A stretch of DNA of 64,000 nt from the NCBI RefSeq assembly GCF_045037415.1, contig NZ_CP173438.1, one strand, 5' to 3'. Positions 31,822-35,602 of the stretch are shown here, piece after piece. Each line of letters starts with the position of its first letter. Within the stretch, counting starts at the first letter, position 1. The notes under the pieces are model-generated. The model had not been told where the DNA came from. It ran no database searches and saw only the letters and a list, made by a program, of their open reading frames with translations. This DNA is from Escherichia coli. GTDB taxonomy: Bacteria > Pseudomonadota > Gammaproteobacteria > Enterobacterales > Enterobacteriaceae. The position numbers and the translations under genes are program-made.

Positions 31822-33792
31822 TTATGGCATTACGCCATCAGTCAGATAGTTTCCATGCTTTACCGCATGATGCCGCCAGATCAGGAGAATTGCAGTCGAG
31901 ATTGCAGCCCCCACCAACGCCGCACCAAACCAACCAATTGCCGCCATAACACCACCCGCGCCATTATCATGAAGTAAAAAGAGCGAGAAAATGCCGGCAC
32001 CGGGTGTCGAAAGGCCGATATTCATCGCACCGACGATAGCGCCCGTTACCATAGATCCCAGCACAAACGAACCAATAACCCGCAGCGGATCTTCAATCGC
32101 CATCGGGATCGCCCCTTCGGTGATACCTGCCAATCCTAACAGCCAGGTGGATTTCCCGGTTTCAATTTCAAACTCTTTAAACAGGCGCGGTGCGAGCATC
32201 GTGGAAGCGGTTACGGTAAATGCCGAAACCATTTTGACGGAGGCGAAAATGGCATACGGGCCGTAAACGCCGTTCGCCATTGCCCCCAGACAGAATGCAT
32301 AAGCGGCTTTGTTCACTGGCCCACCAAGGTCAAAGGAACACATAAAACCGAGAATGGCGCCCAACAACAGTGCGTTATTTCCTGACAGACCGTTCAGCCA
32401 GGCGGTAAGCGAGTTATTGATCCATGCGACAGGTTCCCCTACTACAAACAGCATCAGACTACCCGCCCCCAACGTACCGAGCACCGGGTAGAGATAGAAA
32501 GTCAGGAATCCGTTGAATTTACTGCTAAGACGTAGATGATTTTTCACCCAGCGCATCAGATAACCGGCTATCAATCCGCCAACGACCGCGCCGAGAAACC
32601 CGGAACCAATCATGTTGGCGGCAAGCCCTGCCGCAAAGCCTGGCGCTAACGCCGGTTTATCAGCCAGTGAATAGGCGGTATAGGCTGCGAGCACCGGTAC
32701 CATCAAAATCCCGAGCATCCCGCCGCCCAGCTTGCGGTACATCCACAACCAGGAGTTTTCTTCATTAAACAAATCTTGTAGCCCGAAGATTTGCGACAGT
32801 AATACCGCGACCGCCAGCACCGTGCCACCCGCGACAATCAGCGGCACGGCGAAAGAGATCCCGCTCAACAGTGCCTGCTTCAGCTCCGTTTTGACACTTT
32901 TCACCGGTTGCGTATCTTGCTGTACGGTACGCGTCTCATCGCTACGCTTGAGGGTAAGCGCTTGTTGAATCAACGCTTCTGCATGGCGAATCGGCTCGGC
33001 AACAGGCACAGAAAGCGCGGGAATGCCGTTAAAACGCTCGCTCTCCTTGATAGCGACTTCCGCCGCAAAAATACAGGCGGTTGCACTATTGAGTTGCTCC
33101 GCCGTTAAACGCTCTTCAATGCCGTTAGCACCTTGCTTTTCAACGTAGATATTCACGCCGAGTTTGCGTCCGGCTTTTTCCAGATATTCCGCAGCCATGT
33201 AGGTGTGAGCAATACCCGCCGGGCAGGCCGTTACGCAGACGATAGTTGGCGCATAAGAAAAAGAGGCAGTATGTTGCGCGTCCCCCTTGTCATCCAGCGC
33301 CGAGAGCAATTCATCGGGCGTCGTTGCCGACTGAATACGCGCCCTGAGCTCATCATCCGCCAGGCGCGTGGTCAGCGCGGTAAGCAGTTTCATATGCGTA
33401 GTACCTGCTTCATTGGGAGGAATGGCCAGCAATACCACTAAATCAACCGCTTCCGGGCCATCCACGCCTTCCCACTGAAGCGGCTCGCTGAGTGTGGCGA
33501 CCGCAAACGCCGCTTCTTTTACCGCAGCAGTTTTGCCATGCGGCACGGCCAGCCCTTCACCTAAGGCGGTCGGGCCGAGGCTTTCACGGCAATACACTTC
33601 TTCCAGAAATTGCTCAGTACTGGAAATTTTCCCCAGAGCAGCAAGACGTTGAGTCAACGCGTGGATGGCCTCTTCACGGCTGGTAAAGCGCACATTCAGA
33701 CACAGCGCATCGCGGTGGGTCAGAGTCGTCAGGTTCATCATGGTTCTCACTTGATCATTTTTATAGTCGCGCAAGTGTGCCTGATAAAACAA
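31822..33792 (-). CDS. mngA: PTS 2-O-alpha-mannosyl-D-glycerate EIIABC component
   Basis: 656-aa ORF with PTS EIIA/EIIB/EIIC regions; exact start uncertain. Confidence 0.88.
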
Positions 33793-33815
33793 TACATTTA
33801 CGTGATCACTTTCAC

Positions 33816-33859
33816 TTACAAGATACTATTTGTATTAAATTTGTATTATTTACAAGATG
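33816..33859. promoter_or_regulatory. candidate operator repeats in the mngR-mngA divergent promoter
   Basis: TTACAAGAT at 33816 and 33850; TTTGTATTA at 33829 and 33840. Confidence 0.4.
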
Positions 33860-33906
33860 AATTTATCGAGCATAATGGCTAAATTCGTATTAATGAGATA
33901 CTAGAA

Positions 33907-34629
33907 ATGGGACACAAACCCTTATACCGGCAGATTGCCGATCGCATTCGTGAGCAGATTACGTGCGGCGAGCTAAAACCTGGCGATGCGTTACCCACTG
34001 AATCGGCATTACAAACAGAGTTTGGCGTCAGCCGGGTTACGGTGCGCCAGGCTTTGCGCCAGTTAGTCGAGCAGCAGATCCTCGAAAGCATCCAGGGCAG
34101 CGGGACTTACGTCAAAGAAGAGCGGGTCAATTACGATATTTTTCAGTTAACCAGTTTTGATGAAAAACTGTCGGACCGTCACGTCGAAACACATAGTGAA
34201 GTCCTGATATTTGAAGTAATTCCGGCTGACAATTTTCTTCAGCAGCAGCTGCAAATTAGCGAGCAGGATCGTGTGTGGCATGTGAAGCGCGTGCGCTATC
34301 GCAAGCAAAAGCCGGTGGCGCTGGAAGAAACCTGGATGCCGCTTGCATTATTCCCGGATCTCACCTGGCAGGTCATGGAAAATTCGAAATATCACTTTAT
34401 TGAAGAAGTGAAGAAGATGGTTATCGATCGTAGCGAACAGGAGATAATTCCCCTGATGCCCACGGAAGAGATGAGCCGTCTGCTTAATATCAGCCAGACT
34501 AAGCCGATTCTTGAAAAAGTATCGCGTGGATATTTAGTTGATGGCCAGGTGTTTGAATATAGCCGCAACGCTTTTAATACTGATGACTATAAATTTACCC
34601 TGATAGCGCAGCGAAAATCGCCGCGATAA
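33907..34629 (+). CDS. mngR: GntR/HutC-family transcriptional repressor
   Basis: 240 aa; N-terminal winged HTH, C-terminal UTRA domain. Confidence 0.93.
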   Translation: MGHKPLYRQIADRIREQITCGELKPGDALPTESALQTEFGVSRVTVRQALRQLVEQQILESIQGSGTYVKEERVNYDIFQLTSFDEKLSDRHVETHSEVLIFEVIPADNFLQQQLQISEQDRVWHVKRVRYRKQKPVALEETWMPLALFPDLTWQVMENSKYHFIEEVKKMVIDRSEQEIIPLMPTEEMSRLLNISQTKPILEKVSRGYLVDGQVFEYSRNAFNTDDYKFTLIAQRKSPR

Positions 34630-34631
34630 GC

Positions 34632-34732
34632 ATAAAAAAGGCCATCATAAGATGGCCAACCATGTCGAAACCGACAGCCCTTCGCCCTTCCTGTAGGGGG
34701 AAGCGGCGAGGGCTATTTCTTATTACAGATAT
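34632..34732 (-). ncRNA. sdhX: 3'-UTR-derived sRNA region (SdhX/RybD) with intrinsic terminator
   Basis: about 100 nt after the sucD stop ending in GGCCATC-ttat-GATGGCC plus U-run on the minus strand; matches recalled SdhX locus. Confidence 0.55.
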
Positions 34733-35602
34733 TTATTTCAGAACAGTTTTCAGTGCTTCACCGATATCAGCCAGGCTGCGAACGGTTTTCACGCCTGCGG
34801 CTTCCAGAGCAGCGAATTTCTCATCCGCAGTACCTTTACCACCGGCAATGATGGCACCCGCGTGGCCCATACGTTTGCCTTTCGGCGCAGTCACACCAGC
34901 GATGTAACCCACAACTGGCTTGGTGACGTGCTCTTTGATGTACGCAGCCGCTTCTTCTTCAGCGCTACCGCCGATCTCACCGATCATCACGATCGCTTCA
35001 GTCTGCGGATCTTTTTCGAACATTTCGAGAATATCGATAAAGTTAGAGCCAGGGATCGGGTCGCCGCCGATACCAACACAGGTCGACTGACCGAAACCGT
35101 AATCCGTGGTCTGTTTAACCGCTTCATAGGTCAGCGTACCGGAACGGGAAACGATACCCACTTTACCTGGTTTGTGAATGTGACCCGGCTGGATACCGAT
35201 TTTGCATTCCCCCGGGGTGATAACGCCTGGGCAGTTCGGGCCGATCATACGAACGCCTGCTTCATCCAGTTTCACTTTCACCGTCAGCATATCCAGCGTC
35301 GGGATGCCTTCAGTGATGGTGATAATCAGTTTGATGCCTGCATCGATAGCTTCCAGAATGGAGTCTTTGCAGAACGGTGCTGGTACGTAGATAACAGAGG
35401 CGGTAGCGCCAGTGGCAGCAACAGCTTCACGCACGGTGTTAAACACCGGCAGGCCGAGGTGGGTAGTACCGCCTTTACCTGGGGTTACGCCGCCAACCAT
35501 TTTAGTGCCGTATGCAATGGCCTGTTCAGAGTGGAAAGTCCCCTGGCTACCAGTAAAGCCCTGGCAGATAACCTTGGTGTTTTTATCAATTAAAATGGAC
35601 AT
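34733..35602 (-). CDS. sucD: succinyl-CoA synthetase alpha subunit
   Basis: 289 aa starting [24 protein letters not shown]. Confidence 0.98.

Follow-up and report, generated by a model that had tools for sequence, protein, structure and literature searches.

The spacer between the divergent genes mngR and mngA contains four repeat copies, two of one word bracketing two of another, and the question that this locus raises is which of them form the operator of the regulator MngR. The window, by which we mean the whole 64-kb stretch of DNA that was analysed, derives from E. coli: a 451-bp query at the repeats is 100% identical to strain SK1144, where it lies between the annotated mngA and mngR genes. 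The regulatory gene mngR (farR) is located on the + strand at 33907-34629 and was identified by the equivalog model NF007292 (515 bits), by the Pfam models GntR and UTRA and by the RefSeq annotation. The mngA gene, encoding the mannosylglycerate PTS IIABC transporter and constituting the repressed target, is located on the - strand at 31822-33738 (NF007293 equivalog, 1269 bits; RefSeq start at 33738), and the next gene after it encodes the mannosylglycerate hydrolase according to its NCBIfam equivalog model. Hence, the NCBIfam equivalogs name the genes, RefSeq agrees, and the repeats do lie between the mngR regulator and its mngA target, as the initial annotation of this DNA had it. In the passages of PMC12842492 and PMC12494820 that quote Sampaio et al. 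2004, FarR is stated to have been renamed MngR and to repress mngA and mngB. The MngR protein contains a winged-helix GntR domain and a UTRA domain (Pfam), which places it in the HutC subfamily, and its best solved relative is NagR/YvoA (E = 1e-33). On the other side of mngR, the small RNA SdhX, which is the 3' end of the sucD transcript, is annotated in K-12 between sucD and mngR; in the window, the corresponding stretch (~34630-34732) did not match Rfam at the gathering threshold.

The mngA-mngR spacer (33739-33906) is 168 bp long, has an A+T content of 70% and holds all four repeats; its 33800-33860 region reads ACGTGATCACTTTCACTTACAAGATACTATTTGTATTAAATTTGTATTATTTACAAGATG. The positions that had been given for the four copies proved right in every case. 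The outer word, TTACAAGAT, is present at 33816-33824 and 33850-33858 and occurs nowhere else in the 64-kb window, and the inner word, TTTGTATTA, is present at 33829-33837 and 33840-33848. The latter lengthens to the 10-mer ATTTGTATTA, whose two copies start at 33828 and 33839 and are therefore 11 bp apart from start to start. An additional 8-mer pair, AGATACTA, was detected by a repeat finder at 33821 and 33896. The repeat copies are direct, not inverted, and they are not palindromic. Besides, the repeat region has no significant potential for a single-strand fold (z = -0.85), and no Rfam family was matched in 33400-35000.

How often such repeats arise by chance was estimated from dinucleotide shuffles of the 168-bp, 70% A+T spacer. 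An exact 9-mer repeat appeared somewhere in the spacer in 10% of these shuffles, and an exact 10-mer repeat in 3.3%. When the operator was held fixed, a second exact 9-mer repeat appeared in 8.4%, and when the whole window was shuffled, at least two copies of TTACAAGAT were present in 8 of 100 shuffles. These last two values mean that the outer pair is not beyond chance. The statistics of the inner pair, taken from one spacer alone, are suggestive only; what makes this pair real is that the tandem recurs, slightly degenerate at some loci, in K-12 and in all 40 other species described below.

FarR is described as recognising "direct repeats TGTATTAWTT" in the passage of PMC4494728 that cites Quail, Dempsey and Guest 1994. 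A search with this motif gave two tandem matches 11 bp apart: TGTATTAAAT at 33831-33840, which deviates at position 9, and TGTATTATTT at 33842-33851, which is exact. Half-site 1, ATTTGTATTA, is therefore located at 33828-33837 on the + strand, has its TGTATT core at 33831-33836 and corresponds to one copy of the exact 10-mer repeat and to the FarR motif with one deviation. Half-site 2, ATTTGTATTATTT, follows 11 bp later at 33839-33851 on the same strand, and its TGTATTATTT portion agrees fully with TGTATTAWTT. For K-12, Quail 1994 and Sampaio 2004 have reported physical binding of MngR, as relayed in the relevant passages of PMC4494728, PMC12842492 and PMC12494820. It is thus very probable that the inner TTTGTATTA copies correspond to the two half-sites, arranged head to tail, of the known MngR/FarR operator and that the outer pair is not a second operator.

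The MngR protein was used to scan species-representative genomes, which yielded 40 loci in Citrobacter, Enterobacter, Kluyvera, Buttiauxella, Atlantibacter, Serratia, Edwardsiella and other genera. At all 40 loci mngA is positioned divergently upstream of mngR. The arrangement TGTATT-N5-TGTATT is exact in 32 of the 40, where it is found only in the spacer and on the mngR strand, once per locus of ~6.7 kb; at the remaining loci one core of the tandem is mismatched. Every species locus with an mngR orthologue (40/40) thus has both a divergent mngA and the tandem repeat, either exact or with a mismatch in one core, and neither the spacing nor the strand nor the position of the pair changes in K-12 or in any of the 40 other enterobacterial species with a divergent mngR-mngA arrangement. 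In K-12 the inner repeats read ATTTGTATTGTATTTGTATTAT, so both TGTATT cores are conserved there. The footprint of Sampaio et al. is said to lie on two TGTATT repeats 5 bp apart, which agrees with the sequence of the window. The suggestion that the inner repeats are the MngR operator was therefore borne out both by the published FarR motif and by the fact that the tandem accompanies mngR in 40 species, with its 11-bp spacing unchanged.

The sequences, their conservation and their fixed geometry were observed directly. An alignment of 42 orthologous spacers, from which conservation per column was calculated, contains four conserved blocks: CAATACATTTAYGTGATCAYTTTCACT at 33790-33816, ATTTGTATTnnATTTGTATTRTTTACA at 33828-33854, GGCATAAT at 33869-33876 and [CG]GTATTA at 33884-33892. 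Conservation is ~0.9 or higher over the ATTTGTATT core, and it is at that level throughout 33828-33854 except for the positions between the half-sites. The distances between the elements are also maintained: 28-30 bp separate the core of a CRP-like site from half-site 1 across species, and half-site 2 is 29 bp away from the -10-like hexamer of mngR in nearly all species having the tandem pair.

The tandem pair is located within the mngR promoter region, between mngR and mngA. A consensus scan of the + strand returned a single promoter, TTTACA-16-CATAAT, with 10 of 12 matches. Its predicted -35 hexamer TTTACA (33849-33854) overlaps the 3' end of half-site 2, its predicted -10 hexamer CATAAT is at 33871-33876, and transcription is predicted to start near 33883. 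The 16-bp spacing falls within the 16-18 bp expected of a sigma-70 promoter, both hexamers and their distance to the operator are conserved, and RTTTAC[AT] is present at the -35 position in nearly all species. A different mngR promoter, TTGAAA-18-TATTAT, was predicted by Ishihama (PMC3946193); its -35 hexamer is present only in the K-12 version of a variable patch and is not conserved, and we prefer TTTACA-16-CATAAT. The genomic SELEX-predicted promoters in that study (PMC3946193) rely on non-conserved hexamers. The ROSE supplement, consulted for experimental start sites of mngR and mngA, does not contain these genes.

Relative to the predicted mngR promoter, the operator would extend from about -52 to -32 and overlap the -35 hexamer. 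Because the operator runs into TTTACA, its occupancy should block RNA polymerase at the mngR -35, which would result in autorepression. [quoted passage not shown] Further downstream, the repeat finder detected a third copy, ATTCGTATTA, at 33883-33892 (90%), which is absent from the initial annotation. In its extended form, ATTCGTATTAAT (33883-33894, + strand), it is a weaker direct copy located 44 bp downstream of half-site 2, which corresponds to about +1 to +12 of the predicted mngR transcript. With a matrix built from half-sites 1 and 2 only, it scores 9.8 bits versus 7.7 for the null 95th percentile, and [CG]GTATTA is present at +44/45 in most species. The third copy is a possible auxiliary MngR site.

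The outer pair behaves differently from the inner one. The left TTACAAGAT copy (33816-33824, + strand) lies between the CRP-like site and the operator, and its first T doubles as the final base of the CRP-like core. The remainder falls in a non-conserved patch: columns 33817-33826, together with the AGAT at the end of the right copy (33855-33858), are the least conserved of the 42-spacer alignment, with values of 0.3-0.6. K-12 reads TTGATTGAA at the left position and TTACAGGAT at the right one. The longest word common to both flanks is 9 bases in the window and at most 6 in K-12 and 39 other species, and no equivalent of the left copy was found among the 39 other species compared. As to the right TTACAAGAT copy (33850-33858, + strand), its first five bases (TTACA) belong to the mngR -35 hexamer and its final AGAT shows no conservation. 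Among 5426 complete E. coli genomes, 531 (~10%) have the exact 61-bp arrangement. Hence, neither conservation nor resemblance to TGTATT connects the outer pair with the MngR operator. The right copy is the mngR -35 hexamer plus four unconstrained bases, and the left copy is lineage-specific sequence in an unconstrained part of the spacer.

Several alternative explanations for the outer copies have to be weighed, and the one that fares best concerns their origin and not a function. The patch at 33816-33828, TTACAAGATACTA, consists of 13 bases that are tiled by TTACAAGAT and AGATACTA; since the allele-specific AGATACTA overlaps the left TTACAAGAT, the patch is a mosaic of two words that are found again downstream. 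It might have been generated by a templated multi-base mutation that copied TTACAAGAT from 33850 and AGATACTA from 33896. Each of the two words recurs once downstream, about half of the 13 bases differ from K-12 in a single cluster, and such a mosaic was seen in 1.9% of shuffles. However, the shuffle test was designed after the pattern had been seen, and the patch is unconstrained in all species, so that clustered substitutions are to be expected anyway. We therefore consider a templated origin improbable, and in either case there is no indication that the mosaic has a function. A SlyA site in the left patch was also considered and rejected: by eye the patch is a poor match to the SlyA consensus, and K-12, in which the SlyA effect was seen, does not have the patch. 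SlyA had been taken into account because mngAB expression rises upon SlyA overexpression (3.4-fold; PMC5797941).

According to another explanation, the outer copies are promoter elements, each providing a -35-like hexamer, which reads TTACA on the + strand and TTGTAA on the - strand, and thereby an extra or altered promoter in the allele of the window. The initial annotation had raised this idea for the repeats, and it holds for the right outer copy only, whose TTACA lies within the conserved -35 hexamer TTTACA of mngR. The left copy does read TTGTAA on the - strand, followed by TAAATG 17 nt further on, but its partner hexamers are poor, as TAAATG lacks the final T. In addition, the consensus promoter scan revealed no second promoter, the conserved -10 of mngA is located elsewhere, and the left hexamer is allele-specific. 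For the pair as a whole, this explanation is even less probable than the templated origin.

More doubtful still is the composite operator, in which all four repeats would act as one unit and the outer copies would serve as auxiliary sites for MngR or a partner protein. The bracketing is exact in the window, and 531 E. coli genomes retain it at 99% or more, but K-12, in which the regulation by MngR was worked out, does not have the left copy. This copy also sits within the least conserved columns of the spacer, no other species has more than 6 bases common to both flanks, the repeat is within chance expectation (8%), and TTACAAGAT is unlike the TGTATT core. The idea of two outer copies bracketing two inner ones as a composite element was thus not upheld: the left copy occupies the most variable patch of the spacer, where K-12 has TTGATTGAA, and the flanks of other species share at most 6 bases.

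The remaining alternative is that the inner repeats are themselves a product of chance in A+T-rich DNA or a generic nucleation site for H-NS or another nucleoid protein, and we give it next to no credence: the spacer is 70% A+T, the genomic SELEX table of Ishihama marks H-NS binding in the mngR/mngA spacer (PMC3946193) and a 10-mer repeat is found in 3% of shuffles, but the core is conserved base for base at a fixed 11-bp spacing across genera while adjacent A+T-rich bases drift freely, the tandem strictly co-occurs with mngR, and it matches the FarR motif as quoted in PMC4494728.

On the mngA side of the spacer, the CRP-like site CGTGA-TCACTT-TCACT (33801-33816) falls in a conserved block. 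The conserved element is TGTGATCAnTTTCAC, of which the window carries the CGTGA allele and K-12 and most species carry TGTGA; the match to the CRP consensus TGTGA-N6-TCACA extends to 8 of 10 positions in the window and to 9 of 10 in K-12 and most species. A pattern search of the window placed this match within chance expectation by pattern alone, so the CRP call draws on conservation only. A GATC sequence, the target of Dam methylation, is present at 33804-33807 within the CRP-like core, where it is part of the 8-bp palindrome GTGATCAC, and all orthologous spacers have this GATC.

All 41 sequences (41/41) have, at a distance of exactly 21 nt from the CRP-like core, a hexamer in which position 2 is A and position 6 is T. 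Its variants include CACAAT, CAGGAT, TATGAT and others; in E. coli it is CACACT, located at 33774-33779 on the - strand, and is the predicted -10 hexamer of the mngA promoter, with a predicted start near 33767. In 33 of the 41 sequences this hexamer is preceded by TGn; in the E. coli alleles the TG has been lost and the hexamer is the weaker CACACT. The 21-nt distance puts the CRP-like site at -41.5 of the predicted mngA start, which suggests that mngA has a class II CRP-dependent promoter of the extended -10 type. In the literature searched, we found no paper on CRP control of mngA, and the main text of the CRP SELEX paper does not report it either.

The RefSeq start of mngA in MG1655 (765984) is 60 bases, or 20 codons, upstream of the conserved MNLTT start, in the region that corresponds to 33739-33798 of the window. 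The upstream ATG of MG1655 falls within the predicted promoter, beside the CRP-like site, and the window allele reads AAT there. All 40 species align from the shorter start only, and a GAGGA ribosome-binding site precedes that start. The long MG1655 form of mngA is probably a misannotation.

A further TGTATT, in the inverted orientation (33791-33796, - strand), lies between the predicted mngA -10 and the CRP-like site. It was found by the motif search as the inverted sequence TGTATTGTTT at 33787-33796 and is missing from the initial annotation. In nearly all species it is positioned exactly 10 bp from the CRP-like core, and its conservation is ~0.9. It scores 5.4 bits with the matrix from half-sites 1 and 2, which is below the null 95th percentile; it may possibly be a weak auxiliary MngR half-site. 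The conserved order of the elements is thus the inverted TGTATT, the CRP-like site, the tandem operator, the mngR -35 and -10 hexamers and the third GTATTA, the last of which is ~95 bp from the inverted copy. With respect to the predicted mngA start (~33767), the tandem operator is located at -64 to -80 and the inverted TGTATT at -29 to -24.

The operator would therefore be positioned just upstream of the CRP-like site and the mngA promoter, from where MngR may keep mngAB, which serves mannosylglycerate uptake and hydrolysis, off until it is released by the inducer. We infer the promoter positions, the involvement of CRP and the way in which an operator occupied at about -64 to -80 would repress mngA. 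As a location at -64 to -80 is unusual for simple steric repression, the mechanism at mngA is the weakest step of this model. Candidate mechanisms are that MngR interferes with CRP or with upstream contacts of the polymerase, or that the operator cooperates with the flanking half-sites, which are weak. Given the conserved layout, MngR might do more at mngA than obstruct the polymerase: as an anti-activator, or as a bridging repressor, it would sandwich CRP at a class II promoter of the extended -10 type; we regard this as a rather unlikely proposal, and no description of such a role for MngR was found in the literature searched.

The allele of the window is one of two that occur in E. coli. 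The mng region (32100-35550) exists as two sharply separated E. coli alleles with almost no intermediates: 543 genomes are at least 99% identical to the window, 3318 are 90-95% identical, and 1559 of 5426 have no match. Identity to K-12 is 88% in the spacer versus ~97% in sucD. A natural deletion across the mngR-mngA control region is present in E. coli E89 (NZ_CP121157.1, 1640-1677; window ~33790-33927). Most of this region is lost, with the operator, the mngR promoter and a portion of the predicted mngA promoter, as are the first mngR codons, and 37 bp are left between the annotated genes. An enterobacterial mngR-mngA locus was also encountered on contig CACSKA010000002.1, labelled Chryseobacterium sp. 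18061. Its spacer closely resembles the one in Citrobacter sp. 18056 from the same project, and the assembly is probably mislabelled or contaminated.

The MngR operator at mngR-mngA has already been described, and the finding, although real, is an ordinary one. A scan of raw sequence recovered a textbook operator, which has little significance beyond annotation, and only half of the pattern perceived as composite corresponds to biology. What the comparison contributes is a conservation footprint over 40 enterobacterial species that defines the MngR half-site ATTTGTATT, the invariant 11-bp spacing and the fixed distance to the mngR promoter. It also provides a testable prediction, namely that mngA would be transcribed from an extended -10 promoter dependent on CRP (class II), the operator being situated upstream of the CRP site.

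The closest known system is the FarR/MngR operator of K-12 itself, which shares the locus, the regulator, the motif and the 11-bp spacing and for which the equivalent position in MG1655 is 765935-765951. The window, however, represents a minority E. coli allele that is ~92% identical to K-12 here. The bases between the cores are AAATT in the window versus GTATT in K-12, and the stretch between the half-sites reads TGTATTAAATT in the former and TGTATTGTATT in the latter. The CRP-like half-site is CGTGA versus TGTGA in K-12, and a 13-base upstream patch differs in the window, which gives rise to the outer repeat. Divergent control regions of sugar operons in which a CRP site lies between or beside repressor operators include nagE-nagB with NagC and the CytR/CRP promoters. 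The mngR-mngA spacer likewise has a conserved CRP-like site between possible repressor sites; unlike in those regions, its flanking single half-sites are weak, and the likeness lies in the sequence layout.

Among the relatives of MngR, NagR and DasR have the same regulator fold, and the core of their dre sites (GT-N-TA-N-AC; NagR-DNA structure 4WWC) holds GTAT. However, a symmetric dimer binds the dre sites, which are inverted repeats; the MngR site is built from direct repeats and lacks the inverted GT...AC symmetry of the canonical palindromic GntR/HutC operator. Indeed, FarR is listed as an exception that is not alignable with the other HutC motifs (PMC4494728). Tandem direct repeats with a GTAT-containing core, like those of MngR, are known within the GntR family for NanR (TGGTATAW) and NagQ (TGGTATT) (PMC4494728). 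These are other regulators with other regulons and repeat sequences, and their likeness to the mngR-mngA operator rests on the core and the direct orientation.
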